The notes below the pieces were generated by a model. That model was not told where the DNA came from. It saw only the letters and a list, made by a program, of their open reading frames with translations, and did not search any database. A program made the translations under genes and the position numbers. A DNA stretch of 56,054 bases from Candidatus Omnitrophota bacterium (GTDB lineage: Bacteria > Omnitrophota > Gorgyraeia > JABMSB01), in contig JABMSB010000012.1 in NCBI GenBank assembly GCA_013202205.1, positions 1 through 56,054 of the forward strand. Reading direction: 5' to 3'. Below are positions 6,581 to 30,708 of the stretch, piece after piece; the stretch's first letter is position 1, and each line of letters opens with the position of its first letter.

Positions 6581-6924
6581 TATATCTGTTGACGTTCGTC
6601 TTATTCTCGATAGGATTATATGGCGTAGTGACCAAGAAGAACACGGTCAAGATCGTGATAAGCCTGGTTATAATGGAGTACGCGGTTAATCTTTTTCTGG
6701 TCCTTTTGGGTTATCGAAAAGGCGGCATAGCCCCGATAATGGAGAAGGGGCAGGAGATCCAGGAGTTTGCCGCTGCCACCGTTGACCCCTTGCCGCAGGC
6801 CTTGGTCCTTACAGCCATCGTTATCGGCCTGGGTGTCTTGGCCCTTATGGTATCGTTGTGCATAAGGTTGTATGAAAAGTACGGCACTTTTGATATTTCT
6901 GAAATGAAGAGGTTAAAAGGATGA
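6577..6924 (+). CDS. mnhC: MrpC/MnhC (NuoK-like) subunit
   Basis: VDPLPQALVLTAIVIG signature; ATGA overlap with the upstream gene. Confidence 0.92.
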   Translation: MIYLLTFVLFSIGLYGVVTKKNTVKIVISLVIMEYAVNLFLVLLGYRKGGIAPIMEKGQEIQEFAAATVDPLPQALVLTAIVIGLGVLALMVSLCIRLYEKYGTFDISEMKRLKG

Positions 6925-8435: not shown

Positions 8436-8443
8436 TTTTCAAG

Positions 8444-8953
8444 ATGAGAAGATTAACCCTATTTTTAATTTCGTTTCTGACATGGTGGCTCTTAACTTGG
8501 CCGTATGATTTCTCAAGCGGCCAGATGGATTGGCAGTCTTTTGCGCTCGGCATCTTTGCCGCGGGGCTCGTCTCGCTGCTCTTTGTCAGCATCTTCACAA
8601 AGAGCCCGCACAAGCTCTTTATCTTAAAGAGGTATCTATGGTTCCTCTATTACATACCCGTCTTCTTCTATTATTGCGTTAAGGCAAATCTCGATGTCGT
8701 TTACCGTGTATTACACCCTAAGATGCCCATCAACCCCGGGATAGTCAAGGTACGTACCAAATTAAAGAGCGAATCGGCTATAACCGCCCTGTGCAATTCA
8801 ATCACCCTTACGCCAGGTACACTATCGGTCGATCTTACAGATGATGGGTACATATATATTCATTGGATCAACGTTACATCACAGGACACAAAGAAGGCCA
8901 CCGAGGAGATAGTCACAAAGTTCGAGAAGATACTAGAAAGGATATTCGAATAA
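8444..8953 (+). CDS. mnhE: MrpE/MnhE (MbhA-like) subunit
   Basis: KANLDVVYRVL, PGIVKV, NSITLTPGTLSVD, YIHWI. Start moved to ATG 8444, just after the mnhD stop. Confidence 0.9.
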   Translation: MRRLTLFLISFLTWWLLTWPYDFSSGQMDWQSFALGIFAAGLVSLLFVSIFTKSPHKLFILKRYLWFLYYIPVFFYYCVKANLDVVYRVLHPKMPINPGIVKVRTKLKSESAITALCNSITLTPGTLSVDLTDDGYIYIHWINVTSQDTKKATEEIVTKFEKILERIFE

Positions 8954-9213
8954 TGCTGTATAATGTATTTTTTGGGATACTATTGACCTGCTCTTTTCTC
9001 TGTCTTTACAGGGTGGGGAGGGGGCCTACTGCGCCCGATAGGACAGTGGCTATAGATATACTGGGTATAGTGGTAGTCGGTTTCTGCGCGGTCTTATCCC
9101 TTATGACTGGAAAAGATTTTTACATGAATGTAGCGATAGCCTGGGCCTTATTGAGCTTCATCGGCACCCTGGCATTGGCAAAACATCTTGCAGGGAGGGG
9201 CTTCGATGAGTAG
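8953..9213 (+). CDS. mnhF: MrpF/MnhF (MbhB-like) subunit
   Basis: RVGRGPTAPDRTVAID; TAATG overlap gives the start at 8953. Confidence 0.9.
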   Translation: MLYNVFFGILLTCSFLCLYRVGRGPTAPDRTVAIDILGIVVVGFCAVLSLMTGKDFYMNVAIAWALLSFIGTLALAKHLAGRGFDE

Positions 9214-9541
9214 CCTTATAGGTTTGATCCTCATGGGTATAGGATTATTATTCGACCTCTTCGGCTGCATCGGTCTCGTCCGTCTGCCGGATGTATATAA
9301 CAGGCTCCAGGCGGCAACCAAATGCGTTACGCTCGGCACATGTTTCTTATTGAGTGGGGTGATGGTCTCAGAAGGTGTATCTGCCTTGAGTGTAAAGGCA
9401 TTGGTCTGCATGATATTTATTCTCATCATCTCTCCGACCGCGGCACATGCCATAGCCCGCGGCGCGCATCTTTCCGGAGTGAAGCTTTGGGAAGGTTCTG
9501 TCTGTGACAAGTATGCGGAAGATAGAGAAGGGAAGAAGTAG
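9206..9541 (+). CDS. mnhG: MrpG/MnhG (MbhC-like) subunit
   Basis: GLVRLPDVYNRLQAATK..TLG, SPTAAHAIAR. Confidence 0.92.
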   Translation: MSSLIGLILMGIGLLFDLFGCIGLVRLPDVYNRLQAATKCVTLGTCFLLSGVMVSEGVSALSVKALVCMIFILIISPTAAHAIARGAHLSGVKLWEGSVCDKYAEDREGKK

Positions 9542-10144
9542 ATGAAATATCCAAAACTGCGCGAACTTAAAGAAGCGATAAAGGCGTTAATAATGGGCCC
9601 TTATACGTCAAGTTTTCCCTTTAAGCCGCATGTGCCGCCAAAACAATTCCGCGGCAGGCCCAAATATGACGATAAGGAATGCATAGGCTGCCTGGCATGT
9701 GAAAACGTCTGTCCGGCCGGCGCCATAGACCATGAAGAGATAAAAAGGGGTGATAAACAGATAAGGCATATTACCACTCACCACGATCAGTGTATATTCT
9801 GCGGACACTGCCAGGTAAACTGCACCACCGAGAAGGGCATAATGCTCTCCAATGAATTTGATCTGGCCACCTTTGACAGAAAGGACTCATTCCACGACGT
9901 TGAGAAGGAGCTTGCCCTGTGCGAATGCTGCGGTGAAGTCGTAGCTTGCCAGGACCATCTCGTATGGATAAGCAAGCGCCTGGGGAGCCTCTCTTTCTCA
10001 AACCCCACGATATATCTGGCACACCTTAAGCAGTTAGGGGTGGTGGATGAGAATATCCAGGCTGCGGCAGAGGCGATGAGCCGCGGAGACCGCATGAAGA
10101 TCCTCTGTGTTGAATGCCGCCGTAAGGCCTCCCTAGAAAAATAA
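9542..10144 (+). CDS. 2x[4Fe-4S] subunit (NuoI/HycF/MbhN-like)
   Basis: FRGRP, CIGCLACENVCP, CIFCGHCQVNC, plus C-terminal CECC...CVEC as in HycF-type subunits. Confidence 0.9.
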   Translation: MKYPKLRELKEAIKALIMGPYTSSFPFKPHVPPKQFRGRPKYDDKECIGCLACENVCPAGAIDHEEIKRGDKQIRHITTHHDQCIFCGHCQVNCTTEKGIMLSNEFDLATFDRKDSFHDVEKELALCECCGEVVACQDHLVWISKRLGSLSFSNPTIYLAHLKQLGVVDENIQAAAEAMSRGDRMKILCVECRRKASLEK

Positions 10145-10147
10145 TCG

Positions 10148-10606
10148 ATGGACCAAAGACTAAAAGAAAAATTGAAGGCCTTCCTTAAAGGGAAGGCCGT
10201 CTTATTGGGTATAGGAAATATCCTAAAAGGCGATGATGGGATCGGCCCCGAGCTAATAAAGAGATTATCGGGACGTGTAGATTATAAGCTGATCGATTGC
10301 GGTACGACGCCTGAGAATTATGTCGGCCCCATACAAAAAGAGAATCCCGATACACTCATCTTGATAGACTGCGCCGACTTTGGAGCCGCGCCGGGTGAGA
10401 TAGGTATATTCGAGAAGGATAGAATTAAAGAAGTAGGCCTTACGACACACGACGCCTCGTGCAAACTCCTGATGGAAGTCCTATCAGAAACCATCCCGTC
10501 GATATTTATGATCGCTATCCAACCCGGATCGACGCAATTCGGTGAGAGTTTAAGTGCCGAAGCAGAAGAAGCCCTCCGAAAATTAGAAGAAATCCTCACC
10601 CAATAG
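10148..10606 (+). CDS. hycI: Hydrogenase maturation endopeptidase (HycI-like)
   Basis: LGIGNILKGDDGIGP, DCGTTPEN, LIDCADFG, TTHD. Confidence 0.9.
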   Translation: MDQRLKEKLKAFLKGKAVLLGIGNILKGDDGIGPELIKRLSGRVDYKLIDCGTTPENYVGPIQKENPDTLILIDCADFGAAPGEIGIFEKDRIKEVGLTTHDASCKLLMEVLSETIPSIFMIAIQPGSTQFGESLSAEAEEALRKLEEILTQ

Positions 10607-15356: not shown

Positions 15357-15812
15357 ATGAAGCTGTCCAAGAAGACAGAATATGCGCTCAAAGCCCTGAT
15401 AGAATTGACCATCGATTACGATAAGGGTATCAATGTTACCTTGATCAACGATATAGCTGGGCGTGAAAATATACCACCCAGATATTTGGAGCAGATTCTG
15501 TTAAGGCTTAAGAATTCAGGGATATTAATCAGTAAGCGCGGGGTAGGAGGCGGATATGCTTTAAGCCGGCCGCCTGAAGAGATTAGCATGGGAGATGTGA
15601 TAAGAGAGGTTGAGGGATCGCTGGTCTCTAAAAATAGAAAGGTCGTAAATATCAGCGCCTCAGATGAAATGTCTTATGGCTTAAATAACGTTATGGCGGA
15701 GGCAACAGACGCCATGAAGAAGGTATTTGACAATATATCGCTAAAGGAGATGGCAGAGAGGATTTTCTATTCGATCGAGGCCAAGAAAGATATTCCGAAC
15801 TATGTTATATAG
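15357..15812 (+). CDS. Rrf2-family regulator, CymR-like (no Fe-S cysteines)
   Basis: EYALKAL, IPPRYLEQIL, SKRGVGGGYAL, VIREVEG; contains no Cys; ends ...IPNYVI. Confidence 0.9.
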   Translation: MKLSKKTEYALKALIELTIDYDKGINVTLINDIAGRENIPPRYLEQILLRLKNSGILISKRGVGGGYALSRPPEEISMGDVIREVEGSLVSKNRKVVNISASDEMSYGLNNVMAEATDAMKKVFDNISLKEMAERIFYSIEAKKDIPNYVI

Positions 15813-15820
15813 GTGAAGAG

Positions 15821-15934
15821 ATGGGAAGGCCGATGGAAAGAGAAGGGGTTAGGGCGGGGAAGGGCCACCGAAAAGAGATTGATTATTGTATGGGCATGCG
15901 ATGCTTTCCCGGTAGAAGGGAGCTGCTTATGTAA
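15821..15934 (+). CDS. Putative 37-aa leader peptide (MGRPMEREGVRAGKGHRKEIDYCMGMRCFPGRRELLM)
   Basis: AGGTGA SD at 15811-15816, ATG 15821, TAA 15932-15934; has a YCMGMRC segment. Read manually; not in the track. Confidence 0.35.
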   Translation: MGRPMEREGVRAGKGHRKEIDYCMGMRCFPGRRELLM

Positions 15935-15963
15935 TGTTGCCAAAGTTATTTACAAAAGCGAGA

Positions 15964-15998
15964 CCCACTACCAAAGAAGAGGTGAGTGGGATTTTTTT
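15964..15998 (+). terminator. Intrinsic terminator/attenuator hairpin upstream of DUF2061-cysH
   Basis: CCCACT-ACC...GGT-G-AGTGGG followed by A and seven T, immediately before the AAGGAGG SD. Confidence 0.6.
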
Positions 15999-16009
15999 AA
16001 GGAGGAGAG

Positions 16010-16231
16010 ATGGAACAGCACCGAAGGACCCTGGTCAAGACTATAACCTGGCGCGTAATAGCGTTATTTACCACTATTATTGTGGTCTATGCATATAGCG
16101 GTGATGTCAAAAAATCATTCGTAGTCGGAGGCGTGGCAAACGGCCTTAAGATGATATTCTATTATGTACATGAGCGAGTCTGGAATAGGTCGAAATTCGG
16201 AATAACTAAACCACCGGAGTATCAGATATAA
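16010..16231 (+). CDS. DUF2061 small membrane protein
   Basis: RTLVKTITWRVIA...YYVHERVWNR; AAGGAGG SD; ends ...PPEYQI. Confidence 0.85.
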   Translation: MEQHRRTLVKTITWRVIALFTTIIVVYAYSGDVKKSFVVGGVANGLKMIFYYVHERVWNRSKFGITKPPEYQI

Positions 16232-16266
16232 TTTGATGCGCCACAAAAGAGAAGGAGAGACAAGAG

Positions 16267-16983
16267 ATGAGCTTGTTGGAGAACAAGGAAGATCTGAAGG
16301 TGTTGGTGGAAGAGCTTAATTTCAAAGAGAAGGTTGAGCGTTCCAAGGCGATAATAAGCCAGGCATATGAAAAATATGGCGATGGCCTCGTTGTTGCAAA
16401 CAGCCTGGGCAAAGATTCCTTAGCAGTATGGGATCTTGCCAAGCGCGTAAACCCCAAGATTAGGGGTTTTATTGTAACGACACGCTATAAGCCAAAGGAG
16501 ACTGTCAAATTCATGGATGAGGAAGTCAAGATGTATCCGGAGCTTGAGGTCTACAAGTACGACGCAAAGATCCCGGAGCGTCTCTACGAAACGGATCCCG
16601 ATAAGTGCTGTGATCTCCTAAAGGTTATACCGGTCAAACAGGCTGTCGACAGGATGGGTGTTAAGTGCTGGGTCACCGGGCTGCGCTGCACAGAAGGGCG
16701 CACGCGCACGGACTTCAAAGAAGTAGAAGAGAGAGATGCCGGCCTGATTAAGCTAAACCCCATACTTATATGGAAAGAGCGTGAGGTCTGGCAGTATCTC
16801 GCCCTATACGGCGTTAGGGTAAATCCATTATATGCAGAAGGATATCGCTCGTTAGGTTGTGAGCCCTGCACGAGGATTACAAACGAGGACAATGAACGGG
16901 CCGGCCGTTGGATAGGTACGAGTAAATGCGGCGGTGAATGCGGTATACATACAAGGCCGCTAACTGATGGAGAAGGCATATGA
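16267..16983 (+). CDS. cysH: APS/PAPS reductase, [4Fe-4S]-containing APS-reductase type
   Basis: DKCCDLLKV, WVTGLR, GYRSLGCEPCT, ECGIH. Confidence 0.9.
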   Translation: MSLLENKEDLKVLVEELNFKEKVERSKAIISQAYEKYGDGLVVANSLGKDSLAVWDLAKRVNPKIRGFIVTTRYKPKETVKFMDEEVKMYPELEVYKYDAKIPERLYETDPDKCCDLLKVIPVKQAVDRMGVKCWVTGLRCTEGRTRTDFKEVEERDAGLIKLNPILIWKEREVWQYLALYGVRVNPLYAEGYRSLGCEPCTRITNEDNERAGRWIGTSKCGGECGIHTRPLTDGEGI

Positions 16984-17474
16984 AAAGCAAGTCTAACGCC
17001 CTGCAATATTATCCGCTTGCCGTAAAGCTGTCCGATGGGGTTGCGTTAGTTGTCGGCGGGGGTAAGGTTGCAGAGCGTAAGATAGCCACACTTCGGGATT
17101 GCAGAGCCAGGATACGTATGGTATCCCCGGGGGCAACAGATCTATTGAGGCGCCTTGCAAAGATGGGAAAGATTGAATGGGTCCGCCGCCATCTTCGGGA
17201 TAGTGATGTAAGAGGCGCGCGTATCGTAGTTGCAGCTACAGATGACAGGGATGTTAATGAAAGGGTCAGTCGATTGGCACGGAAACATCGGGTTTGGGTT
17301 AATGTTGTAGACAAACCGATTTTGAGTGATTTTATATCACCTGCGCTCTTTCGCACAAAAAAGAGCATAGTGACTGTCTATACGGATGGCAGGGATCCGG
17401 TGCTCTCTCGCGACCTTAAGAATTTCCTGAAGGAGAGATGGGATGATTTCTTATCTTATAGGGATAGATTATAG
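16980..17474 (+). CDS. Precorrin-2 dehydrogenase/ferrochelatase (SirC / CysG N-terminal-like), C-terminally short
   Basis: YYPLAVKL, VVGGGKVAERK, AATDD..VN, WVNVVD.P..SDFISPA. Confidence 0.88.
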   Translation: MKSKSNALQYYPLAVKLSDGVALVVGGGKVAERKIATLRDCRARIRMVSPGATDLLRRLAKMGKIEWVRRHLRDSDVRGARIVVAATDDRDVNERVSRLARKHRVWVNVVDKPILSDFISPALFRTKKSIVTVYTDGRDPVLSRDLKNFLKERWDDFLSYRDRL

Positions 17475-18468
17475 TACCGCTTCAATAGAGGAGCGGGAAA
17501 GGGCTTATCGCCTGCGCCGCAGGATAGAGGCATATTGGCGATTTGTGAATCCGGGCGGTGTTGCAGTGCTTACTACCTGTAACAGGATTGAAATATACGG
17601 TATTTCATCCAGTCGGGGTGAGGCTGAAGCTTTTGGGATATTGTTCCGGCAGAAGTTCAAGAGCTGTTTTAAGAACGGATACGTCATATACGGTGACAAT
17701 GGTCTCTTCGCTCATGCCATTCGGTTAGCCTGTGGCCTCAAATCCAGAATAAAAGGTGAACCCCAGATAGTAGAGCAGTTGGAGGTATGGCTCGATCATA
17801 AGAGTTTTCCCGGTCCCCTCAAAAGTATCTTAAGCAGGGCCCTCGAATCCGGCAAAGAGGTTCGCGCGAGATCCGGCATAGATAGAAATAAGGTCGATAT
17901 TGCGGATCTTGTACTCAATGATCTTGGTATGGAGGTTGCCTCCGGACGAAGGGCGAAGGTGCTAGTTATGGGCACGGGCAAGATCGCATCTTTGATTGCC
18001 GAGAAACAACCCGGATCAGTATACATAATATTCGCCGCGCGCAAAAAGCTCGCGAAGGCCAAGAGGCTTGCGAAGCTGGCAGGAGGCGAGGCGATATTAT
18101 ATGAAGAGATAGATAGATATCTGGATTCAGCGGATGCGGTAGTAAGTGCTACTTCCAGCCCTCATCGCGTCTTAGCCGCGCGCAATTTTGCCTCGGCGAT
18201 TAAGACGCGCAGGACGCCTTTATATATTTATGACCTGGCCATGCCTCGCGACGTTGCGCCGGATATCCATAAGATACCTTTTGTAGTAATGAGAGATGTC
18301 GAGGGTCTGATAGAGAGGTTTTATCGTAAAGAGAGCGGCATAACCAGGAGCCTTGAGCTTGCATCGAAGCTCATAGGGTCAAAGATTGCCGAATATAAGG
18401 AGTCGACAGGTGTTAAAGAGTATACTGATTGGCACACGGCCCAGCCGATTGGCATTGAAGCAGGTTGA
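17443..18468 (+). CDS. hemA: Glutamyl-tRNA reductase, divergent and short
   Basis: TTCNRIEIY (catalytic Cys), GEPQI, GTGKIA, SATSSPH, DLAMPRDV; 341 aa. Confidence 0.85.
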   Translation: MISYLIGIDYSTASIEERERAYRLRRRIEAYWRFVNPGGVAVLTTCNRIEIYGISSSRGEAEAFGILFRQKFKSCFKNGYVIYGDNGLFAHAIRLACGLKSRIKGEPQIVEQLEVWLDHKSFPGPLKSILSRALESGKEVRARSGIDRNKVDIADLVLNDLGMEVASGRRAKVLVMGTGKIASLIAEKQPGSVYIIFAARKKLAKAKRLAKLAGGEAILYEEIDRYLDSADAVVSATSSPHRVLAARNFASAIKTRRTPLYIYDLAMPRDVAPDIHKIPFVVMRDVEGLIERFYRKESGITRSLELASKLIGSKIAEYKESTGVKEYTDWHTAQPIGIEAG

Positions 18469-19063
18469 TGAGATCGCCCGGCGCCTGCCCGAGATCGATT
18501 TCGATATAGTCCCGATTGAGACGAGAGGGGATAAGGATAAGGTCACGCCATTGACAGGACCGAATAAGGACGATTTCTTTACATATGAGATAGAGAAGGC
18601 GCTTCTGGAGGGCGAGATAGATGTCGCAGTCCATAGCGCAAAGGATCTTGAAGAGGTACCTCCTCAAGGACTTGTGATAGCTGCTAGGACAGGCTCCGTC
18701 AGCCCATTCGAATGTCTGATATCAAAAGGGGATCTTAAATTGAAGGAGCTTCCCCCCGGTGCGGTAGTTGGAACCAGCAGCCACAAGCGCAAAACCGCGG
18801 TTATCAATTTCAGAAGGGATCTTAAGGTTAAGGATATTCGCGGCAATATAGATGAGCGCATAAGACAGCTTGAAGAAGGCAAATTTGACGCGATCATTAT
18901 AGCGCACGCCGCATTGATCAGGCTTGGGTTTGAGGAGAGGATTTCAGAGATAATACCGCCGGACATTATCGCGCCGCACCCGCTTCAGGGAAGGCTGTCG
19001 ATACAGGTCCGCGCTGACAGAAAAGAGCTGATAGGCCTATTTGGGAGCATCGATGGAGAGTAA
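18410..19063 (+). CDS. hemC: Hydroxymethylbilane synthase-like protein lacking domain 3
   Basis: IGTRPSRLA, ETRGD, AVHSAKD, VGTSS, IRGNIDER; stops after LQGRLSIQVR. GTG start at 18410 with AAGGAG SD. Confidence 0.88.
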   Translation: MLKSILIGTRPSRLALKQVDEIARRLPEIDFDIVPIETRGDKDKVTPLTGPNKDDFFTYEIEKALLEGEIDVAVHSAKDLEEVPPQGLVIAARTGSVSPFECLISKGDLKLKELPPGAVVGTSSHKRKTAVINFRRDLKVKDIRGNIDERIRQLEEGKFDAIIIAHAALIRLGFEERISEIIPPDIIAPHPLQGRLSIQVRADRKELIGLFGSIDGE

Positions 19064-19772
19064 AAGAGGAAGGGTATATATAATCGGAGCAGGACCGGGA
19101 GACCCCGAGCTTATTACCGTCGGAGGGCTCAAGGCCTTGAAAAGGGCAGATTGCGTCCTGTATGACTTCTTGAGCAACTCAGAGCTGCTTAAGCATGCGA
19201 AAGATTCGTGCGAGCGGATATGCGTCGGCAAGGCGGACGGGTTACACTTAAAAGAGCAGGGTGAGATAAATCGCCTGCTCTATAAAAAGAGCAAGGAATA
19301 TAGAGTGACCGTACGCCTTAAAGGCGGTGATCCATTTATATTCAGCCGCGGCGCTGAGGAGGCGAGATATCTTAAGAAGAAAGGGGTGCGGGTTGAGGTG
19401 ATACCGGGCATTACATCAGCGATCGCAGGCCCCGAGAGTTTCGGTATCCCGCTTACGGTGAAGAATAAGATCTCATCGGTAGCTATAATAACCGGAAGAA
19501 AGAAGGATACAAACGCAGAGATAGAAGCGCCAAGGTGCGGCACGCTGGTCTATCTTATGGCCGTTGGCAATATCTCAAATGTCGTAAAGGCGCTGCGCAG
19601 GAATAAGTGGAGTGAGGCGACACCATGCGCTTTTATTGAACGCGCAACTCGAAAAGATACGCGCATTATACATGCCACCATTGCGACAATAGAAGAAGAG
19701 GCGCAGAGGGCGAAGATAAGGCCGCCGGCTGTTTTGGTTGTAGGGGAGGTAGTCAATTATGGCAAAGAGTAG
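19053..19772 (+). CDS. cobA: Uroporphyrinogen-III C-methyltransferase (stand-alone, no HemD fusion)
   Basis: VYIIGAGPGDPELIT, RLKGGDPFIFSRGAEE, VIPGITS, PPAVLVVGEVV. Confidence 0.93.
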   Translation: MESKRGRVYIIGAGPGDPELITVGGLKALKRADCVLYDFLSNSELLKHAKDSCERICVGKADGLHLKEQGEINRLLYKKSKEYRVTVRLKGGDPFIFSRGAEEARYLKKKGVRVEVIPGITSAIAGPESFGIPLTVKNKISSVAIITGRKKDTNAEIEAPRCGTLVYLMAVGNISNVVKALRRNKWSEATPCAFIERATRKDTRIIHATIATIEEEAQRAKIRPPAVLVVGEVVNYGKE

Positions 19773-20706
19773 ATATGGGGTCGATATAGATTCTTTGGTT
19801 TATCCGGTCTTTGTAAGGCAGGGCATAGATCTACAGCAACCCATTCCCTCAATGCCGGGGGTCTATAGATTTTCGCCTGATAGTCTGGCGAAAGAAGTCG
19901 ATCGACTTTTGAAGATAGGGATCAAGAAGATCCTACTTTTCGGTATAACAGAAGAGAAGGACGAATGCGGTACAGCCGCTTATGGTGATAAGAGTATAGT
20001 ATCGACCACGATCGGCCTGTTAAAGCATCTATTCCCTGAGCTGATTATTATGACGGACGTTTGCCTGTGTGCCTACACATCACATGGCCACTGCGGTATC
20101 TTAAATAGATCGAGCGACGATGTCTTAATAAATAAAGATAAGACACTTCATGCATTATCAGAGATGGCTCTTTCGCATGCAGCCGCAGGCGCCGATTATG
20201 TAGCACCCTCGGCCATGGCTGAAGGACAGGTAAGTTCTATAAGAAAGGCGCTGGATGGAAATGGTTTTAAAGAGACGCGGATCATGGGGTATTCTGCCAA
20301 GTACGCCTCGCAGTTTTACGGCCCATTCAGGGATATTGCCGATTCAGCCCCGCGATTTGGTGATAGATGCCAGTATCAGCTGGGTTGGACAGAGAGGGAA
20401 CGCGCATTCTCAAAGATCGAGGATGACATAAGAGAGGGGGCAGATATCGTCATGGTCAAGCCTGCCCTCGCATATCTCGACATCATACGAGAAGCCAGGG
20501 ATAAGTTTCGCCATAGATTAGCAGCATACAACGTGAGCGGGGAGTATGCCATGATAAAGGCAGGCGCACAATCCGGATATTGGGATGAAGAAGAGGCAGT
20601 CTTTGAAGTCATGACCGCGATAAAGAGGGCAGGTGCCGATATTGTCATAACATACCATGCCCCGGACATAGCAAGATGGCTGAATCGAGGAGGAGTCCCT
20701 CAGTGA
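19759..20706 (+). CDS. hemB: Porphobilinogen synthase (Zn-type)
   Basis: DVCLCAYTSHGHC, APSAM, YSAKYAS.FYGPFRD, VMVKP, AYNVSGEYAMIKA. Confidence 0.95.
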   Translation: MAKSRYGVDIDSLVYPVFVRQGIDLQQPIPSMPGVYRFSPDSLAKEVDRLLKIGIKKILLFGITEEKDECGTAAYGDKSIVSTTIGLLKHLFPELIIMTDVCLCAYTSHGHCGILNRSSDDVLINKDKTLHALSEMALSHAAAGADYVAPSAMAEGQVSSIRKALDGNGFKETRIMGYSAKYASQFYGPFRDIADSAPRFGDRCQYQLGWTERERAFSKIEDDIREGADIVMVKPALAYLDIIREARDKFRHRLAAYNVSGEYAMIKAGAQSGYWDEEEAVFEVMTAIKRAGADIVITYHAPDIARWLNRGGVPQ

Positions 20707-21965
20707 GAAGAGTTGTCGATAACAAGAAGAGCACCAAGATTATAAAGGCGGCAAAATGCGTTTTGGTGGGCGGCGTAAATAGTCCTGTCCGTTCATTTTC
20801 ATATGTCGGAGGAGATCCCATACCTATCTATTCAGGCCGCGGATCGCGGATCTGCGATTACGACCACAACTGGTATATAGATTATGTCCTTTCTTACGGG
20901 GCCCTTATCCTTGGGCATACACGGCCTGAGGTTATGCAGAGCATAAAGCAGACGGCCGATTTGGGTGTGGGATTTGGCGCTACCCATAAGCTGGAGGTAG
21001 AGTTGGCGGAGCGCATTAAGGCCGCGATACCGCTCCTAAAGAAGATCCGCTTTGTCTCATCCGGCACAGAAGCTGTAATGGGTGCCGTAAGGCTTGCCCG
21101 AGGTGTAACCGGCAGGAGCAAGATAATAAAGTTTGAGAGGTCTTATCACGGTCACGCCGATTATCTCTTAAAGAAGGCAGGCTCCGGCCTGGCAACGATG
21201 GAGTTGCCTCTAAGTAAGGGGGTGCCAAAGAGCCTCCTGCAAGATACAATTATTGCCCGATACGGGGATAGAAATGAGATAGATAAGATATTTGCGAAGT
21301 TCGGGCCGGATATCGCGGCCATTCTTGTGGAGCCTGTAGGAGGAAATGACGGCGTTGTTTTACCCGATAAAAATTTTCTTAAAATTTTAAGACGAATAAC
21401 AAAAAGATACGGGACGCTATTAATTTTTGATGAGGTTATAACAGGATTTCGTTTCCATTTTGGTTCTGCCGCTGCCTATTTTGGCATAAGGCCGGATATT
21501 ATCTGTCTGGGTAAAATAATAGGCGGAGGATTACCCATCGGGGCATATGGTGGGAGCAAGAGAGTAATGGATCAGTTGGCCCCGCTCGGCGGTGTCTATC
21601 AGGCATCTACCTTTGCAGGAAATCCGGTCGTCATGAGCGCAGGCCTAAGCACTCTTAAAGTCCTGGCTTCATCGAGAAGAGATTACAGGCGGTTGGATAG
21701 ATTGGCCCTCTATTTAAGCCGGGCCGTCTTGGAGGAAGCTCGAAAACAGAGAATAGATCTATCGATAAGGCAATTCAAGGGTATCTTCAGCATCCATTTT
21801 AAAAAGAAGAGCCATTTTAAGGTCTTCTACAGAGAGCTCTTAAATGCGGGGGTCTATTTAGCACCGTCAGAACATGAGTCAAATTTTATCTCATTTGCGC
21901 ATACAAAAAAAGATATAGATAAGACGATCGGGATCGCGAAGAAGGCATTGTGCCTTTTAAAATAA
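20703..21965 (+). CDS. hemL: Glutamate-1-semialdehyde 2,1-aminomutase
   Basis: GGVNSPVR, VSSGTEA, YHGHAD, FDEVITGFR, LGKIIGGGLP; GTG start overlaps the hemB stop (GTGA). Confidence 0.95.
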   Translation: MRRVVDNKKSTKIIKAAKCVLVGGVNSPVRSFSYVGGDPIPIYSGRGSRICDYDHNWYIDYVLSYGALILGHTRPEVMQSIKQTADLGVGFGATHKLEVELAERIKAAIPLLKKIRFVSSGTEAVMGAVRLARGVTGRSKIIKFERSYHGHADYLLKKAGSGLATMELPLSKGVPKSLLQDTIIARYGDRNEIDKIFAKFGPDIAAILVEPVGGNDGVVLPDKNFLKILRRITKRYGTLLIFDEVITGFRFHFGSAAAYFGIRPDIICLGKIIGGGLPIGAYGGSKRVMDQLAPLGGVYQASTFAGNPVVMSAGLSTLKVLASSRRDYRRLDRLALYLSRAVLEEARKQRIDLSIRQFKGIFSIHFKKKSHFKVFYRELLNAGVYLAPSEHESNFISFAHTKKDIDKTIGIAKKALCLLK

Positions 21966-21976
21966 GGAGAAAAACG

Positions 21977-22693
21977 ATGACAAAGGATATAGATTACGAT
22001 GCTCTGAAAAAGAGAGGTTTTTTGCGGCAGAAACAAGAGGGCCTCTTTTTGCTGAGGGCAAGGGGCGCAAAAGGCAACTATACGAGAGAAGAGTTTCTTA
22101 TCTTTGGTGATATATCGAGGAAATATGGTAAGGGGATTATCCATGCCACCACACGCCAGGGGCTCGAGATACCATTTATCCGCTTCGAAGATATAGAGAA
22201 TGTTGAGAGAGAGATATTGGAGGCAGGTATCCAGCCCGGGACATCAGGCCCACGCATACGGACAACGACCACCTGCCCGGGTAATAACTGGTGCAAGAGC
22301 GGGCTCATCGACCCATTTTCGTTATACGATAGAATAGAAAAAGATATCGGGATAAGATGCGGGATGGACCTACCCCACAAATTTAAGATAGCCATATCCG
22401 GATGCCCCAACAAGTGCACGAGGGCAAATAGCACCGAAATAGGCATACACGGCCAATCGGATACCTCAGGTCCGGAAAGAAGGATAGGGTATACTGTCTA
22501 TCTGGGGGGATGCGGCGGCAGAACACCCCATGAGGGCTTTAAGCTCGATAAAGTTTTTACAGAAGATGAAGTCTTATCTATAGTTGAGAGAGTGGTCAGG
22601 TTTTATAAAGAGAATGCCAAGTCGCGCCAGCGCCTGGCACTCTTGATAAAAGAGAGAGGCAAAGGTCTTTTCTTAAAAGAGGTTGGGTTATAA
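21977..22693 (+). CDS. Low-molecular-weight siroheme-[4Fe-4S] sulfite/nitrite reductase (single-repeat, alSir-like)
   Basis: HATTRQGLE, RIRTTTTCPGNNWC and FKIAISGCPNKC give the Cx5C...Cx3C ligands; about 238 aa with no ferredoxin insertion. Confidence 0.85.
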   Translation: MTKDIDYDALKKRGFLRQKQEGLFLLRARGAKGNYTREEFLIFGDISRKYGKGIIHATTRQGLEIPFIRFEDIENVEREILEAGIQPGTSGPRIRTTTTCPGNNWCKSGLIDPFSLYDRIEKDIGIRCGMDLPHKFKIAISGCPNKCTRANSTEIGIHGQSDTSGPERRIGYTVYLGGCGGRTPHEGFKLDKVFTEDEVLSIVERVVRFYKENAKSRQRLALLIKERGKGLFLKEVGL

Positions 22694-24879: not shown

Positions 24880-25860
24880 ATGGATATAAGAGCGATAAAT
24901 GAGATGGTGAAGAAGGAGAGCATATTTGTCCAACAGCTCTTGCAGGAGATGAAAAAATCTATTGTGGGCCAGGACTATCTGTTGGAGAGGCTCTTATTAG
25001 CGCTTTTGGCCAATGGCCATATATTAATAGAAGGCGTGCCGGGGCTGGCGAAGACGATGTCAGTGCGCGTCTTGGCAAGCGCGATAAGTACCGGTTACCA
25101 GAGGCTGCAGTTTACACCTGACCTCTTACCGGCCGATCTCATAGGTACGCTCGTCTACAATCCTAAGGATGGAGGATTTGTGACGAAGAAAGGCCCCATA
25201 TTTTCCAATATAATCCTTGCCGATGAGATAAACCGCGCCCCAGCCAAGGTCCAATCGGCACTCCTTGAAGCGATGCAGGAACGCCAGGTTACGATAGGTG
25301 ATGAGACCTTCAAACTCGATGACCCATTTCTGGTACTTGCGACACAGAACCCCATTGAGCAGGAAGGTACATACCCATTGCCGGAAGCGCAGATTGACCG
25401 CTTTATGCTTAAGGTAAATATAACCTATCCGAATAAGAAAGAAGAGAGGGAGATAGTCGAACGCTGGGCCACAAAGGATGAGCTGAGCGTCAAGAAGGTC
25501 GTCTCGCCCAAGGATATAATAAAGGCGCGTGATGTTGTAAAAGAAGTTTACATAGACGATAAGGTAAAGGACTACATTATCGATATAGTATTTGCCACGC
25601 GCAACCCGGAAGATTATAAACTCGACATGAAGAACCTTATCGGCTACGGCGCTTCGCCGCGCGCCTCACTTTATCTCACCAGGTGCGCCAAGGCCTACGC
25701 ATTCATAAGAGGGCGTGGATATGTAACACCGGAGGATGTGAAGGCGATAGGTATGGACGTGCTGCGCCACCGCGTAATAGTAACTTATGAAGCGGAAGCG
25801 GAGGAGAAGCGCTCAGAGGACCTGATAAAACGTATATTTGACGAAATAGAAGTTCCTTAA
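24880..25860 (+). CDS. moxR: MoxR-family AAA+ ATPase
   Basis: EGVPGLAKT (Walker A), QFTPDLLPAD, LADEINRAPAKVQSALLEAMQE, ATQNPIEQEGTYPLPEAQIDRF, GASPRA. Confidence 0.96.
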   Translation: MDIRAINEMVKKESIFVQQLLQEMKKSIVGQDYLLERLLLALLANGHILIEGVPGLAKTMSVRVLASAISTGYQRLQFTPDLLPADLIGTLVYNPKDGGFVTKKGPIFSNIILADEINRAPAKVQSALLEAMQERQVTIGDETFKLDDPFLVLATQNPIEQEGTYPLPEAQIDRFMLKVNITYPNKKEEREIVERWATKDELSVKKVVSPKDIIKARDVVKEVYIDDKVKDYIIDIVFATRNPEDYKLDMKNLIGYGASPRASLYLTRCAKAYAFIRGRGYVTPEDVKAIGMDVLRHRVIVTYEAEAEEKRSEDLIKRIFDEIEVP

Positions 25861-25869
25861 AAAACTCAT

Positions 25870-26751
25870 ATGATACCGAAAGAAGTCCTTAAGAACGTCA
25901 GGCGTATTGAGATAACGACGAAGCGGCTCGTCAATGAGGTCTTCAGCGGCGAATATAAGTCGACCTTTAAGGGCCGTGGTATGGAATTCTCCGAGGTGCG
26001 CCAGTATGTGGTAGGGGATGATATACGATCCATAGACTGGAATGTCACCGCCAGGATGAACCAGCCTTTTGTCAAGAAGTTCGTCGAGGAACGCGAACTC
26101 TCCATAATATTTCTCTTCGATGTTTCGGCCTCAAGCTTCTTCGGCACCCGCAATAAGTTTAAGAGGGAGCTGGCCGCCGAAGTTGCGGCACTCCTGACCT
26201 TCAGCGCCATCCGCAATAACGACAAGGTCGGGCTTATAATCTTCAGCGACAGAATAGAGAAGTTCATCCCGCCAAAGAAGACATCTGTCCACGCACTGCA
26301 CGTAATAAGGGATCTCTTGTACTATAAGCCGAAAGGCAAGGGCACCGACATAGCTGCGGCCCTCAAGTACCTTAGTAAGGTCGCTACAAAGAGCTCCATC
26401 ATCTTCCTTATGTCTGATTTTATGGATGAGAATTTCAGGAGGCCCCTCTCCATTGCCAGCCGCAAGCACGATATAATAGCCATCAATGTATCCGACCCGG
26501 CAGAAGATATACTTTCATCTATCGGCTTGGTTGAGGTTGAGGATCTTGAGACCGGCAGGCGAAAGGTGATAGATACCCACGATAAGTCCGCTGTAAGAGA
26601 ATATAATAAAGTGCGTACCAAGCAACGCAATTCTCTCAGGGATCTCTTTGGCGCGGAAGACGTAGATTATATCGAGATGCGCACAGACGTGCCATATATA
26701 AATTCACTATTAGGTTTCTTCCGTAAAAGGGGAAAGCGTTACCGGCGATGA
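25870..26751 (+). CDS. DUF58 (vWA-like) protein
   Basis: FKGRGMEFSEVRQYVVGDDIRSIDWNVTAR, FVEERE, DVSAS, SDF. Confidence 0.95.
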   Translation: MIPKEVLKNVRRIEITTKRLVNEVFSGEYKSTFKGRGMEFSEVRQYVVGDDIRSIDWNVTARMNQPFVKKFVEERELSIIFLFDVSASSFFGTRNKFKRELAAEVAALLTFSAIRNNDKVGLIIFSDRIEKFIPPKKTSVHALHVIRDLLYYKPKGKGTDIAAALKYLSKVATKSSIIFLMSDFMDENFRRPLSIASRKHDIIAINVSDPAEDILSSIGLVEVEDLETGRRKVIDTHDKSAVREYNKVRTKQRNSLRDLFGAEDVDYIEMRTDVPYINSLLGFFRKRGKRYRR

Positions 26752-27773
26752 ATAAGGTAGTTACAATAATATCTGTATGTTGCTTAAGCCTATTGGCGGT
26801 TGTCTCAGGGGCTGAGGCCGGGCAACTCTTGGCTACGGCCATGGCAGATCGCACTACGATAAATGTCGGCGACCAGATAAGGCTTATACTCGAGCTTGAG
26901 GCTACCCCTGACGTAGAGGTCATATTGCCCACTGAAGTCGATTTCGGTGATTTAGAGCTTTTGGGTAAGAAGGTCCTTGACCCAAAACGGATGGAGACAG
27001 GTACAGTTGTACAAAAAATAGTATATACCCTCACAGTTTTCAAGACGGGCGATACGGCTATTTCGCCCATAAAGGTTGCCTATATAGATGGGGATAAAGA
27101 ACTCTCAACCTTAAGCCAGAGGATAGATATCCGCGTAGAGAGCGTGCTCAAGGGAGATCTGAAAGGTAAGGATATACGGCCGTTAAAAGGGCAGGTGTCA
27201 TTGGGCAGAGGAGTGGTATCCAATCTCTTAAGGGCTCTTTTGGCGCTTCTTTGTTTGGTCGGCGCCGTATACTTATTTTTATATATTAAAAGAAGACGGG
27301 ATGAGTTGGCGCAGAACCTGAAGGCCCCGGAGAGACCCCCGCACGAAGTAGCATATGAAGCACTCAACAAACTTAAAGAGTCCCCACTCCTTAAAGATGG
27401 GAAGGTAAAAGAGTATTATATAGAATTGAGCTGGATAGTCCGTTTCTATCTGGAGAAGAGGTTTAAGGTCTCTATGACTGACCGGACTACGGATGAGATA
27501 TTCCATATTATGCGGGAGAATAAGATAGAGCACAGTACTGTTGAGCTGGTACACGATTTTTTGGTTTCGAGTGATCTGGTAAAGTTTGCCAAGTGGACGC
27601 CGCTTCCGATAGGCATAACTAATGATACGAATAGGGGCTACAAAATAGTAGATACCACAAAGATAGAAGAGGTGGCCGAGGAGCCGGAAGATGCCAAATC
27701 GACAGAAAAGAAGGTCTATATCGGCGTCAAAAAGAGAAGAAATGTAAAGAGGGGGAAAGGCCAGAACAAGTAA
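26748..27773 (+). CDS. Bat-operon membrane protein (signal peptide, BatD-like Ig domain, TM, PPHEVAY cytoplasmic domain)
   Basis: Signal-like N-terminus, DIRPLKG, TM segment, LSWIVRFYLE, TTDE, DLVKFAK; sits between DUF58 and batA. Confidence 0.75.
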   Translation: MNKVVTIISVCCLSLLAVVSGAEAGQLLATAMADRTTINVGDQIRLILELEATPDVEVILPTEVDFGDLELLGKKVLDPKRMETGTVVQKIVYTLTVFKTGDTAISPIKVAYIDGDKELSTLSQRIDIRVESVLKGDLKGKDIRPLKGQVSLGRGVVSNLLRALLALLCLVGAVYLFLYIKRRRDELAQNLKAPERPPHEVAYEALNKLKESPLLKDGKVKEYYIELSWIVRFYLEKRFKVSMTDRTTDEIFHIMRENKIEHSTVELVHDFLVSSDLVKFAKWTPLPIGITNDTNRGYKIVDTTKIEEVAEEPEDAKSTEKKVYIGVKKRRNVKRGKGQNK

Positions 27774-28763
27774 ATGAGATTCTTAAATCCACTATTCCTT
27801 ATCCTGCTAATTCTCGTGCCGGTCATCGTTTTGGTAAAGGTGACCTTATTTAAAAAAGGCGACCCCAGCATCGGCTACAGCACACTCTCGGCAATGGATA
27901 AGTTTAAGCCGTCATTGCGCCTTGGCTTAAGACGAATACCGCTATTTTTAAGATATACAGCGCTTGTATTGCTGGTCGTGGCAATGGCCCGGCCACAGGC
28001 AGGCCTTACCAAAAGGGAGATCACCTCACACGGCATAGACATAATGCTTGTGCTCGATACATCCGGAAGCATGCAGGCGCTCGACTTCCAGCCCAAGAAC
28101 AGGCTTATGGCTGCCAAGGAGGTTATAAAGGATTTCATAAGCGGCCGCAGGGAAGATAGGATTGGATTGGTCGTATTTTCAAAAGGTGCTTTTACGCAAT
28201 GTCCCCTTACGCTCGACTATGATATTCTTCTTAAATTAGTCGATAGGGTTGACTTCGGCATGATGGAAGACGGGACTGCCATAGGGAGTGCCATATCGGT
28301 CGCGGTAAATCGTTTGAAAAGCTCTAAGGCAAAGTCGAGGGTCATAATCCTTCTCACAGACGGCATAAATAATGCCGGCAAGGTCGATCCTTTTACAGCA
28401 GCAAAAATAGCTACCAGTTTTGGCATAAAGATATATACGATAGGTGCAGGGAAGCCCGGCCCGACGATGCTGCCTATCAATGATCCCGTATACGGTAAAC
28501 GCATCGTTAAGGCCGAAATAGAACTCGATGAGGATACCCTTACCAAGGTTGCGAGGGAGACGGGGGGGTTATATTTCAGGGCAAAAGACGAACGCGCGCT
28601 TAAAGGGATCTATGAACGCATAAGTAAGATGGAGAAGGTGGAGATAAAGTCGCGCACCTTTGCGCAATATAAGGAGGTTGCGCCGAAGCTATTGGCCCCG
28701 GCTATCATGCTCTTATTGCTCGAGATATTATTGAGTAATACGGTGTTTAAGAAGTTGCCATAA
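27774..28763 (+). CDS. batA: vWA-domain protein BatA
   Basis: GIDIMLVLDTSGSM (MIDAS), DRIGLVVF, QCPLTLD, GTAIG, LTDGINNAG, IYTIG, TGGLYFRA. Confidence 0.9.
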   Translation: MRFLNPLFLILLILVPVIVLVKVTLFKKGDPSIGYSTLSAMDKFKPSLRLGLRRIPLFLRYTALVLLVVAMARPQAGLTKREITSHGIDIMLVLDTSGSMQALDFQPKNRLMAAKEVIKDFISGRREDRIGLVVFSKGAFTQCPLTLDYDILLKLVDRVDFGMMEDGTAIGSAISVAVNRLKSSKAKSRVIILLTDGINNAGKVDPFTAAKIATSFGIKIYTIGAGKPGPTMLPINDPVYGKRIVKAEIELDEDTLTKVARETGGLYFRAKDERALKGIYERISKMEKVEIKSRTFAQYKEVAPKLLAPAIMLLLLEILLSNTVFKKLP

Positions 28764-28782
28764 AGGAAGCCCTTATTTTCTT

Positions 28783-29787
28783 ATGAGATTCGCGAATCCT
28801 GAAATACTAAATTTTCTTTGGTTGGTTCCGCTGCTCTTTATTCTGCTCAGGGCCTGGGCAGGGGGACGCCGAAAACTTCTCCTAAAAGTAGCAGACCTCT
28901 CGCTGATAGAGCGCCTGACCGCTTCTGTAAGTTATAAGAAACGCCTTGCGAAACAGATCCTATTTGTCTTGTCTATCTTCTTTTTGATAGTTGCGCTGGC
29001 GCGGCCCCAATTTGGCGAGAAGAATATAAAACTTAAGCGGTTAGGTATAGATGTGGCGATACTCCTTGATACATCGCTCTCTATGCTGGCGGAGGACATT
29101 AAGCCGAATCGCTTGGAAAAGGCAAAATTTGAGATCCAGTTACTCATAGAGAAGCTCGAAGGCGACCGCATAAGCATAGCCGTATTCAGCGGAAGCCCTA
29201 TGGTGATATGTCCCCCTACGCTCGACTACGAAGCTGCCGCAATGTTTTTAGATGTGATAAATGCTGATATGGCTCCTACACCGGGGACTATGATGGGGCT
29301 TGCAATAGATTCCGCAACACGCCTATTTGATCCAAAGGAGAAGAAATACAAGGTAGTGATACTCATATCTGACGGTGAAGATCAGGGTAGCGATCCTATA
29401 GGCGCGGCAAGGCGCGCATATAGGCAGGGGGTCAGGATATTTACCATAGGCATAGGGTCGAAAGAGGGAGAGCCTATACCCCTAAAGGATGAGAAGGGCA
29501 GGACCACGGGCTATAAGAAGGATAAGTCAGGCGCGGTCGTCCTGACAAAGTTGGGCATTGATACCCTTATGGGCATAGCCGGCGCAGCAGGAGGCGCGTA
29601 TTACACTGCTTCACAGGGTGAATGGGGGCTCGATAAGATATACAGCGCTATGCAGAAGCTTGAGAAGAAGGAGCTGCGGGAGGAGTTTGGACATCAGTAT
29701 GAGGATAGGTTCCAATACCCGCTCGGCCTGGCATTGATACTGCTTATTGTTGAGGCCCTGATTCCTGAACGGCGTAAGGTGAAATAG
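28783..29787 (+). CDS. batB: vWA-domain protein BatB
   Basis: ALARPQFG, LDTSLSMLAEDIKPNRL, ISDGEDQ, FTIGIGS.EGEPIP. Confidence 0.9.
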   Translation: MRFANPEILNFLWLVPLLFILLRAWAGGRRKLLLKVADLSLIERLTASVSYKKRLAKQILFVLSIFFLIVALARPQFGEKNIKLKRLGIDVAILLDTSLSMLAEDIKPNRLEKAKFEIQLLIEKLEGDRISIAVFSGSPMVICPPTLDYEAAAMFLDVINADMAPTPGTMMGLAIDSATRLFDPKEKKYKVVILISDGEDQGSDPIGAARRAYRQGVRIFTIGIGSKEGEPIPLKDEKGRTTGYKKDKSGAVVLTKLGIDTLMGIAGAAGGAYYTASQGEWGLDKIYSAMQKLEKKELREEFGHQYEDRFQYPLGLALILLIVEALIPERRKVK

Positions 29788-29790
29788 ATT

Positions 29791-30708
29791 ATGCGTATAG
29801 TCAAAATGATAGCTATAATAACAATCGGTTTCTTCCTGGTAGGATGGATTGGTGTGGCCGATGAGGTGAATAAGGCGAACAGGCTCTATATGGAAGGCGG
29901 CCTTGATGAGGCGCTTAAGGATTACAGGGAGGCCCAGATAGAGGCTCCGGACAAAAAAGAGATAGACTACAATATAGGGAATGTCCTGTATAAGAAGAGG
30001 GATTACGAAGAGTCGAAGAAGTCTTACGAAAAAGCCACTAAATCAGAAGATGAGACCTTAAGGCATAAGACGCATTACAACCTCGGTAATACAAATTTTC
30101 GGGAAGGGGATTACGAAACGGCCATAGAGAGCTATAAGGATGCGCTCAGGATGAACGAGTTTGACATGGATGCGAAGTTTAACCTCGAGCTGTCCATGAA
30201 ACGCCTGGAAGAGGAAGAGAAGAAAGAAGAGGAAGAGAAGAAGAAAGAGGAAGAAGAAGAAAAGAAGAAGGAGAAAGATAAGAAAGACGAGAAGGAAAAA
30301 GATAAGGATAAGAAAAAAGATAAGGAGAAAGAAGATAAAGAGGAAGAAGAGAAAGAGGATGAGAAGGAGAAGCCGGATCAGAAGAATCAGCCAGACCAAC
30401 AGGATCAGGAAAGAGAGAAAGAGAAGAACCCGATAGATCAGAAAGAGCAGGGGGAGAGACCGGAAGACGAGAAGGAGAAGGATAAAGAAGAAGAGAAGAA
30501 ATTGGGAGATGAACAACCGGAGTCCCAGAAGAAAGAGAAAGAAGAGAAGGAAGAAGAGGAGCAGCAGGCCCCGCAATCCCAAAGAGAGAAGCCGATATCT
30601 GAGGAGGACGCCGAACGCATCCTGAATGCCCTGCAGGAGGATGAGAAGAATTACCTCGGTTCAAAGAAGGACCAGCAGAAACGCTGGAAGGTTGAAAAAG
30701 ATTGGTAA
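29791..30708 (+). CDS. batC: TPR protein BatC with a charged low-complexity linker
   Basis: YNIGNVLY, HYNLGNTNF, AKFNLEL; E/K/D/Q-rich tract; AERILNAL...EKDW C-terminus. Confidence 0.88.
   Translation: MRIVKMIAIITIGFFLVGWIGVADEVNKANRLYMEGGLDEALKDYREAQIEAPDKKEIDYNIGNVLYKKRDYEESKKSYEKATKSEDETLRHKTHYNLGNTNFREGDYETAIESYKDALRMNEFDMDAKFNLELSMKRLEEEEKKEEEEKKKEEEEEKKKEKDKKDEKEKDKDKKKDKEKEDKEEEEKEDEKEKPDQKNQPDQQDQEREKEKNPIDQKEQGERPEDEKEKDKEEEKKLGDEQPESQKKEKEEKEEEEQQAPQSQREKPISEEDAERILNALQEDEKNYLGSKKDQQKRWKVEKDW
30208..30560 (+). repeat. Purine-rich low-complexity coding tract (E/K/D/Q)
   Basis: Runs of GAA/GAG/AAG/AAA/GAT codons inside batC; boundaries approximate. Confidence 0.8.

Follow-up and report, generated by a model that had tools for sequence, protein, structure and literature searches.

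How does a hydroxymethylbilane synthase (HMBS, HemC) begin its pyrrole chain when it lacks the domain that normally carries the cofactor, and what turns its product into uroporphyrinogen III when no HemD is encoded alongside? Both questions are raised by a siroheme gene cluster at positions 15357-22693 of a 56,054-bp stretch of DNA from Candidatus Omnitrophota (contig JABMSB010000012.1; the whole stretch, hereafter "the window", has ~47-50% G+C), in which the genes run in the order Rrf2, a small open reading frame (ORF) at the position of a DUF2061 gene, cysH, sirC, hemA, hemC, cobA, hemB, hemL and sir. Canonical HemC anchors its dipyrromethane cofactor through a thioether to a cysteine of domain 3 (Cys242 of the GGCQVP motif in E. 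coli), and without HemD the bilane cyclises to dead-end uroporphyrinogen I. Taken as a whole, the locus appears best explained by an intact two-domain HMBS with a non-canonical mode of priming and by a HemD encoded elsewhere in the genome, a composite reading in which we place slightly better than even confidence.

The HemC of the window ends before domain 3

The two genes at the centre of these questions are the following:

18410-19063, + strand: two-domain ("mini") hemC, encoding porphobilinogen deaminase domains 1 and 2 and ending at the hinge before domain 3
19053-19772, + strand: cobA, encoding a uroporphyrinogen-III C-methyltransferase of 239 amino acids (aa) without a HemD domain (PF00590, TP_methylase, only)

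The hemC ORF extends from a GTG at 18410 to a TAA at 19061-19063, encodes 217 aa and is preceded by AAGGAG 7 nucleotides (nt) 5' of its start; a TTG at 18386 is the alternative start given by the ORF finder. Its product aligns with positions 1-205 of the 207-position Pfam profile PF01379 (213.5 bits) and exceeds the equivalog cut-off of NCBIfam TIGR00212 (214 bits against 164), covering positions 1-215 of 293 only, and no match to PF03900 (domain 3) was found in it with Pfam. E. coli residue numbers were placed by alignment with an E. coli HemC sequence used as a positional ruler only, and on this ruler the protein ends at residues ~219-222. In the E. coli enzyme the hinge comprises residues 218-221 and domain 3 residues 222-313 (PMC3945110). 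As the ATG of cobA at 19053 overlaps the hemC stop, there is no space for a hidden or frameshifted domain 3. A Pfam scan of all + strand ORFs of at least 110 aa in the window revealed neither PF03900 nor PF02602 (HemD), and home-made hidden Markov models (HMMs) for domain 3 and HemD returned nothing from six-frame window ORFs of at least 60 aa. An earlier reading of the same DNA (hereafter the original prediction) had described a HemC that keeps the HSAKD aspartate and most of the arginine motifs, stops at about residue 217 and has nothing like GGCQVP, followed by a CobA without a HemD fusion in a cluster devoid of hemD; both observations are borne out here. This HemC is the only one of the siroheme operon that serves the small sulfite reductase of the window.

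Hydroxymethylbilane synthases without domain 3 form a large clade

A search of 5.8 billion protein clusters yielded 949 matches to the window HemC, the best 120 of which (the close relatives) are 59-81% identical to it, measure 195-240 aa (212-226 aa in 116 of them) and have PF01379 only; all named ones are Candidatus Omnitrophota. Among the best 150 HemC matches from a wider, exhaustive HMMER search, which covered 1.84 billion representatives clustered at 50% identity, domain 3 is missing from 79 as judged with the home-made domain-3 HMM, and its absence was confirmed by Pfam for all ten checked. A census of the best 80 loci in GTDB one-genome-per-species representatives revealed 23 without domain 3, to which protein look-ups added four, making 27 domain-3-less loci besides the window. 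The gene order cysH-sirC-hemA-hemC-cobA-hemB-hemL-sir is shared by 23 of these 27 (the related loci, in which ~20 species are represented and which were covered with flanks of 10 kb on either side). The same operon with its mini-HemC is borne by a closed-looking 1.99-Mb contig (L001), where hemA and hemC share 14 nt; in the window the first 59 nt of hemC (18410-18468) lie within the 3' end of hemA, and some relatives (L022, L023, L027 and L085) have an in-frame fusion of hemA with hemC.

In a neighbour-joining tree of 233 N-terminal regions, 99 of the 104 domain-3-less sequences form one clade, inside which the window HemC falls and which contains zero three-domain sequences; the five outliers without domain 3 have the motifs of canonical HemC, and their scores resemble those of truncated canonical proteins. 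Members of the clade share a signature made of D60-F61-F62-T63 ("DFFT"), HSAKD and E22, present in the window as KDDFFT, HSAKD and E21. Comparison of the 99 clade sequences with 128 three-domain relatives gave the following residues at five positions, named by their E. coli residue:

Position Y22: E in 91/99 of the clade; mixed in three-domain relatives (H 29, F 14, Y 14 of 128)
Position K59: K outside the six commonest residues in the clade (n = 99); K in 79/128 three-domain relatives
Position G60: D in 95/99 of the clade; G in 102/128 three-domain relatives
Position L61: F in 94/99 of the clade; F 69, V 23 and L 16 of 128 three-domain relatives
Position M82: A in 93/99 of the clade (HSAKD); L 51, M 30, H 20 and A 14 of 128 three-domain relatives

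Named members of the clade are Omnitrophota, Elusimicrobiota and Spirochaetota, and it has diversified in other lineages as well. Their architectures include stand-alone proteins of ~215 aa, HemA-HemC fusions, SirC-HemA-HemC fusions of ~700 aa with HemC at the C-terminal end and, with HemD, HemC-HemD (435-463 aa) and HemC-CobA-HemD fusions (635-687 aa), the last having only a linker of 20-40 residues at the place of domain 3. In every context examined, clade members adjoin hemB, hemL and sulfite reductase. These enzymes make up a monophyletic group of considerable size that extends over several phyla, and are not a quirk of this contig. Given that these sequences form one pure clade with a shared signature, domain 3 was most likely lost once, long ago, the two-domain enzyme having since been kept in siroheme/sulfite-reductase operons.

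We note that six loci with the same operon and a HemC 57-68% identical to that of the window (L005, L008, L010, L011, L016 and L020) are labelled "uncultured Planctomycetia bacterium". Their closest named relatives are Omnitrophota, and the Planctomycetia labels are probably loose.

The fold and the catalytic cleft are retained

An AlphaFold2 model of the window HemC has a mean pLDDT of 90.7 and a pTM of 0.84 and is weak only at residues 41-60, the aligned counterpart of the "active-site loop" (residues 40-63) of E. coli HemC (PMC3945110). Foldseek superposed the model on 1PDA, 4MLQ, 7CCY and 4HTG, the query-normalised TM-scores being 0.80-0.92. Each of the 17 distinct HMBS sequences with a solved structure has three domains and at least 310 aa. 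The window protein has HSAKD, with the equivalent of Asp84, together with R11, S13, Q19, F62, R132, R149, R155 and R176, and likewise the equivalents of S81, K83, S128/S129 and Q198. The residues that are invariant or nearly so in the 104 domain-3-less sequences comprise R11, S13, Q19, F62, S81, K83, D84, S128, S129, R132, R149, R155, A170, R176, Q198 and G199, the roles ascribed to them in cofactor or chain contact or in catalysis being those of the E. coli enzyme (PMC3945110). Since the catalytic cleft is intact, mini-HemC most likely still binds porphobilinogen and joins four molecules of it into the linear bilane.

Priming of the pyrrole chain

Cys242 and Arg232, both located in domain 3, are absent from the window HemC, and Lys59 is lost as well. 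At the position of Arg131, one of two neighbouring arginines whose replacement in the R131L and R132L mutants leaves the E. coli enzyme unable to bind its cofactor (PMC3945110), the window encodes a lysine:

18785-18787, + strand: codon of Lys126, at the position of the cofactor-binding E. coli Arg131; Arg132 is kept

Arginine occupies this position in 128/128 three-domain relatives versus 52 of the 99 clade members, the others including K 16, N 7, S 7, A 5 and T 3; in the 120 close relatives the commonest residue is lysine (K 98, N 13, R 4). Thr127 is also relaxed in the clade. Because Cys242 and Arg232 are missing, Lys59 is lost, Arg131 is unconserved and no cysteine is universal, priming most likely takes place without the canonical cysteine-linked cofactor. 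The chain would then start not on thioether-linked dipyrromethane but on a primer held non-covalently, or directly on the first substrate molecule, and the domain-2 cysteine that most members possess would be at best an optional anchor. We infer from these sequences, in keeping with the original prediction, that the cofactor is not carried by the canonical cysteine, the lack of a conserved cysteine and the relaxation of Arg131 both lending support to that proposal. The aspartate at the G60 position was considered as a covalent anchor and rejected, as 14 of the 120 close relatives have Asn, Gly, Arg or Ala there.

HemD and the origin of uroporphyrinogen III

The CobA of the window scores 258.6 bits against TIGR01469, over the cut-off of 185, and its gene stops a few residues past the methylase domain, where hemB overlaps its end. 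In sister lineages the position of the window cobA is held by CobA-HemD fusions of 460-470 aa. CobA-HemD is encoded in the same operon as a mini-HemC at four loci (L017, L023, L027 and L086), HemC-CobA-HemD fusions are found in L004 (P0130, from an Omnitrophota metagenome-assembled genome) and L088, and at L085 a cobA ORF lies in another reading frame directly 5' of hemD. Because an ordinary HemD accompanies mini-HemC in sister lineages, either joined to it or encoded next to it, the enzyme is predicted normally to feed a canonical uroporphyrinogen III synthase, and the "different route to uroporphyrinogen III" entertained in the original prediction finds no support, sister Omnitrophota having the mini-HemC and an ordinary HemD side by side or in one polypeptide. 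The sub-lineage of the window, represented by the 23 related loci, has cleanly lost the HemD module from cobA, and its HemD most likely lies elsewhere in the genome.

Nine HemD sequences were combined into a search profile. Among its best 120 matches, 116 are fusions of TP_methylase and HEM4 measuring 351-507 aa; 13 of the 120 are labelled as Omnitrophota or Omnitrophica, and most are nameless. No stand-alone Omnitrophota HemD was found among the profile matches listed. A single HemD domain used as query gave five matches, two of which were examined in context: that at L088 belongs to a fusion broken by a frameshift, that at L087 to a canonical hemC-hemD pair. One stand-alone-looking HemD, P0323, was rejected as such given that it directly follows an uncalled cobA ORF in a different frame. 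Sequence conservation of HemD is low, its gene often lies away from the others of the pathway, and some haem-making organisms have no annotated HemD (PMC13564367).

Alternative explanations

Several points weigh against the explanation that we favour. For every member of the clade, the activity, the product and the lack of a bound cofactor are all deduced from sequence data, and that HemD lies elsewhere in the genome is an assumption. The domain-3 and HemD HMMs of the census were home-made, with a Pfam cross-check on a subset, and the neighbour-joining tree of HemC carries no support values. No HemD was found by the home-made HMM, which picks up HemD in most control loci, within 10 kb of the operon in the 23 related loci (six-frame ORFs of at least 60 aa). 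A covalent anchor may have been relocated in most members, the window protein and its Cys102 included, and a domain-3-like protein encoded elsewhere may act in trans.

The first of these last two possibilities withstands scrutiny best, tentative though it is. Dipyrromethane would be covalently attached to a cysteine of domain 2, at position 172 or, in the window, at the following residue, the enzyme being otherwise canonical:

18713-18715, + strand: codon of Cys102, the sole cysteine of the window HemC, aligned with E. coli Ala107; candidate optional anchor

A cysteine at E. coli position 107 or 172 is present in 76/104 domain-3-less sequences versus 9/128 three-domain relatives, an enrichment that is uncorrected for shared ancestry. 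Subclades differ in which of the two positions they use, 172 being that of the HemC-CobA-HemD group, and simulations of the E. coli enzyme have position 172 touching the growing polypyrrole (PMC3945110). The Cys102 position is occupied by Cys in 107 of the 120 close relatives; it is Ser in seven, Ala in five and Arg in one, and 11 of these 13, although full-length, have no cysteine anywhere. Neither the 107 nor the 172 cysteine is found in 28/104 domain-3-less sequences, eight of the 104 having no cysteine at all in the HemC part. An obligatory catalytic nucleophile would not vary in this manner, and the relaxation of Arg131 argues for an altered cofactor site. Cys102 was thus rejected as an obligatory anchor and retained as an optional one, and priming without a canonical anchor remains the reading that we prefer.

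A second alternative, which we regard as unlikely, is that the sub-lineage has no uroporphyrinogen III synthase whatsoever, ring D being inverted by mini-HemC or another enzyme of the cluster, or type-I isomers being used. Two points speak for it: HemD is missing within the operon and its 10-kb flanks in 23 loci from ~20 species, and the HemD module was cleanly lost from cobA while all other pathway genes stay clustered. Set against this, the HemC of L017, whose locus encodes a CobA-HemD, falls among the HemD-less sequences of the window type in the neighbour-joining tree, and no residue was found to track HemD absence in the HemC comparison; nothing therefore suggests that HemC took over the isomerase function. 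The one candidate marker, His166 (in "AHAAL"), was rejected inasmuch as L017 has both His166 and a CobA-HemD, and R, Q, Y or G replaces it in several HemD-less loci. The HMBS of Plasmodium falciparum offers a parallel, in that HemD was likewise not found and the deaminase was proposed to supply its activity, but it has a normal domain 3 and makes only hydroxymethylbilane, and the claim of a bifunctional deaminase/cosynthase, the sole earlier one of its kind, was refuted experimentally (PMC8698207). HemD is, moreover, notoriously divergent and its gene often lies apart (PMC13564367). An analogue of HemD in the operon flanks was also considered and rejected: the only extras that recur in the flanks of the 23 related loci are antisense shadow ORFs, a cysteine synthase and a phosphate transporter. 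Were both departures real, such that the whole clade works without covalent dipyrromethane and one Omnitrophota sub-lineage works without any uroporphyrinogen III synthase, the III isomer would have to arise by an unrecognised activity, or a siroheme-like cofactor from a different isomer; we think this conjunction improbable. An ordinary HemD encoded outside the covered flanks is what we favour for the sub-lineage.

Third, a separate small protein bearing the cofactor cysteine might dock onto the two-domain enzyme and stand in for domain 3. Split enzymes are common in small genomes, yet no such ORF is present in the window and none recurs in the flanks of the 23 loci; SirC, HemA, CobA and HemD are each fused to mini-HemC somewhere in the clade, domain 3 never; HemC either ends the fusion, as in many cases, or is followed by HemD or CobA after a linker of 20-40 residues; and Arg131 is relaxed too. 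We consider such a partner improbable. More improbable still is that the short gene is an inactive relic and that a canonical hemC, with a hemD, is active elsewhere, a formal possibility named in the original prediction for which nothing direct was found. Across the 23 related loci, the median identity of HemC to the window protein (60.7%) equals that of HemB (60.2%) and HemL (55.9%), HemA standing at 40.4%; the active-site residues are invariant in a clade that is large and old; mini-hemC is fused in frame to other pathway enzymes; and no canonical hemC was found within 10 kb in 28 domain-3-less sources (the 27 loci and the window). Lastly, the deletion or mis-join at ~19063 that the original prediction allowed for, like any assembly error concealing a frameshifted domain 3, can be dismissed almost outright, for although the window has one apparent single-base frameshift elsewhere, in carA, no point favours an artefact here: the cobA start overlaps the hemC stop, the architecture recurs in more than 120 protein clusters and in 23 loci from independent assemblies, and positions 16750-19404 of the window, which span the hemC-cobA junction, recur with 100% identity in a Logan assembly of run SRR28106056.

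Comparison with known enzymes

Domains 1 and 2 of the window HemC are homologous to those of canonical HMBS enzymes (E. coli 1PDA, B. megaterium 4MLQ and human 3ECR), with which they share 32-37% identity, the catalytic Asp84, almost all pyrrole-binding residues and a place between hemB and the enzymes acting at the uroporphyrinogen level. Unlike these enzymes, the window protein has no domain 3 (and with it neither Cys242 nor Arg232), its Arg131 position is unconserved, Lys59 is lost and G60 is replaced by D. It is a distinct two-domain variant of HMBS and not an ordinary member of the family, for want of domain 3 with its cofactor cysteine and of Arg131.

The nearest catalogued counterpart is NCBIfam NF002202 (PRK01066.1), a hydroxymethylbilane synthase equivalog model of 241 positions that covers the two N-terminal domains only. 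Given this length, a family of short HemC proteins has already been catalogued. The window HemC scores 165.7 bits against the model over positions 20-230 of 241, below the cut-off of 251, and is thus not a member; ten other representatives were scored too, the seven clade members among them reaching 173-200 bits and the three truncated canonical proteins 121-137 bits. NF002202 probably represents the short chlamydial HemC (~241 aa). The literature covered yielded no biochemical work on this family and no discussion of its missing domain.

HemC-HemD and CobA-HemD fusions follow the same pathway logic as the cluster and occur among the relatives of mini-HemC; in the window, HemC and CobA are separate proteins and neither carries HemD. 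The fusions of the clade have HemD or CobA directly after domains 1 and 2, whereas domain 3 is retained in the other HemC-HemD fusions, of 550-600 aa. In a review of haem biosynthesis from 2026, the cofactor is described solely as attached to "a conserved cysteine residue" (PMC13564367). No publication on a natural HemC without domain 3, or on siroheme and hemD in Omnitrophota, was found in the literature covered, which was incomplete.

The dipyrromethane primer that domain 3 carries through a thioether is generally regarded as universal among HMBS enzymes. The clade, which lacks this domain, retains the remainder of the active site and is found in complete siroheme operons, may serve as a natural experiment on what the cofactor and domain 3 contribute, be it priming, the counting of chain length or stability, and as a minimal scaffold of 217 residues for mechanistic and structural work. 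The HemD-less sub-lineage, for its part, provides a defined test case for "missing" uroporphyrinogen III synthases. There is also a consequence for annotation, given that hydroxymethylbilane synthase is the plain, uncommented name of these proteins and that reconstructions of the pathway in Omnitrophota and related uncultured phyla depend on whether they function.

Other genes of the cluster

Besides hemC and cobA, the cluster comprises the following genes:

15357-15812, + strand: transcription regulator of the Rrf2 family, first gene of the cluster (PF02082, 111.8 bits)
16010-16231, + strand: small conserved ORF of 73 aa, positional equivalent of a DUF2061 gene (BLASTP matches in 14/23 related loci)
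16267-16983, + strand: cysH-like phosphoadenylylsulfate/adenylylsulfate (PAPS/APS) reductase (PF01507, 134 bits)
16980-17474, + strand: short sirC/cysG-N-like precorrin-2 dehydrogenase of 164 aa (PF13241, 102.8 bits)
17443-18468, + strand: short hemA (glutamyl-tRNA reductase) of 341 aa without the C-terminal dimerisation domain (GlutR_N and Shikimate_DH only)
19759-20706, + strand: hemB, porphobilinogen synthase (PF00490, 425 bits)
20676-21965, + strand: hemL, glutamate-1-semialdehyde aminomutase (PF00202, 223.6 bits)
21950-22693, + strand: small sulfite/nitrite reductase hemoprotein of 247 aa (PF03460 and PF01077)

An Rrf2 homologue is found at the same position in 15/23 related loci and also in L001 and L002. 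The small ORF that follows (16010-16231) has no NCBIfam match, and PF09834 (DUF2061) was detected on the gene at its position in L002 and L088 when the copies of the relatives were run through Pfam. A cysH gene is present in 20/23 related loci, with a median identity of 80%, and sirC in 23/23. The product of the latter aligns with positions 2-140 only of the 205 in TIGR01470 (cysG_Nterm). No sirohydrochlorin ferrochelatase of the SirB, CbiX or CbiK type, to insert the iron of siroheme, was seen in the cluster or the window.

HemA aligns with positions 3-332 of the 416 in TIGR01035 at 148 bits, under the cut-off of 209.55. The hemA ORF measures 331-355 aa in domain-3-less loci, compared with mostly 407-440 aa in Bacteroidota-type three-domain loci with a full-length HemA ORF. 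HemA and HemC have lost their C-terminal domains together in these operons.

The hemL gene is syntenic in 19/23 related loci, and the gene for the small sulfite/nitrite reductase, the likely consumer of siroheme, is present in 17/23. In relatives with HemD fused to CobA (L017, on contig JAUYBI010000019.1, L086 and L088), sulfite reductase takes the form of a far larger fusion, either a duplicated NIR_SIR of ~740-800 aa or NIR_SIR with TusA, as against the 247 aa of the window form. The small reductase and the loss of HemD may have arisen together.

The remainder of the window

All plausible genes of the window lie on the + strand, GC skew is positive throughout (0.06-0.23), and no tRNA gene was found in the 56 kb. 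Upstream of the siroheme cluster, positions 146-10606 encode a membrane-bound [NiFe] hydrogenase of the Mbh/Mrp type, or a complex-I-like module, together with a maturation protease (HycI). Downstream, a complete "aerotolerance" operon with the order MoxR - DUF58 - BatA/BatB - TPR - BatD occupies positions 24880-33399.

The carA gene (35994-37126) is split into two overlapping ORFs, one base being apparently missing at ~36793 ("CTGG-CCAC"), within the stretch that corresponds to GICLGHQ, the catalytic motif of glutamine amidotransferase domains; the break may be either a sequencing error or a real frameshift. Two full-length carB-like genes, each encoding 1080 aa, are located at 38667-41909 and 46500-49742, with purQ, purL and purF between them.

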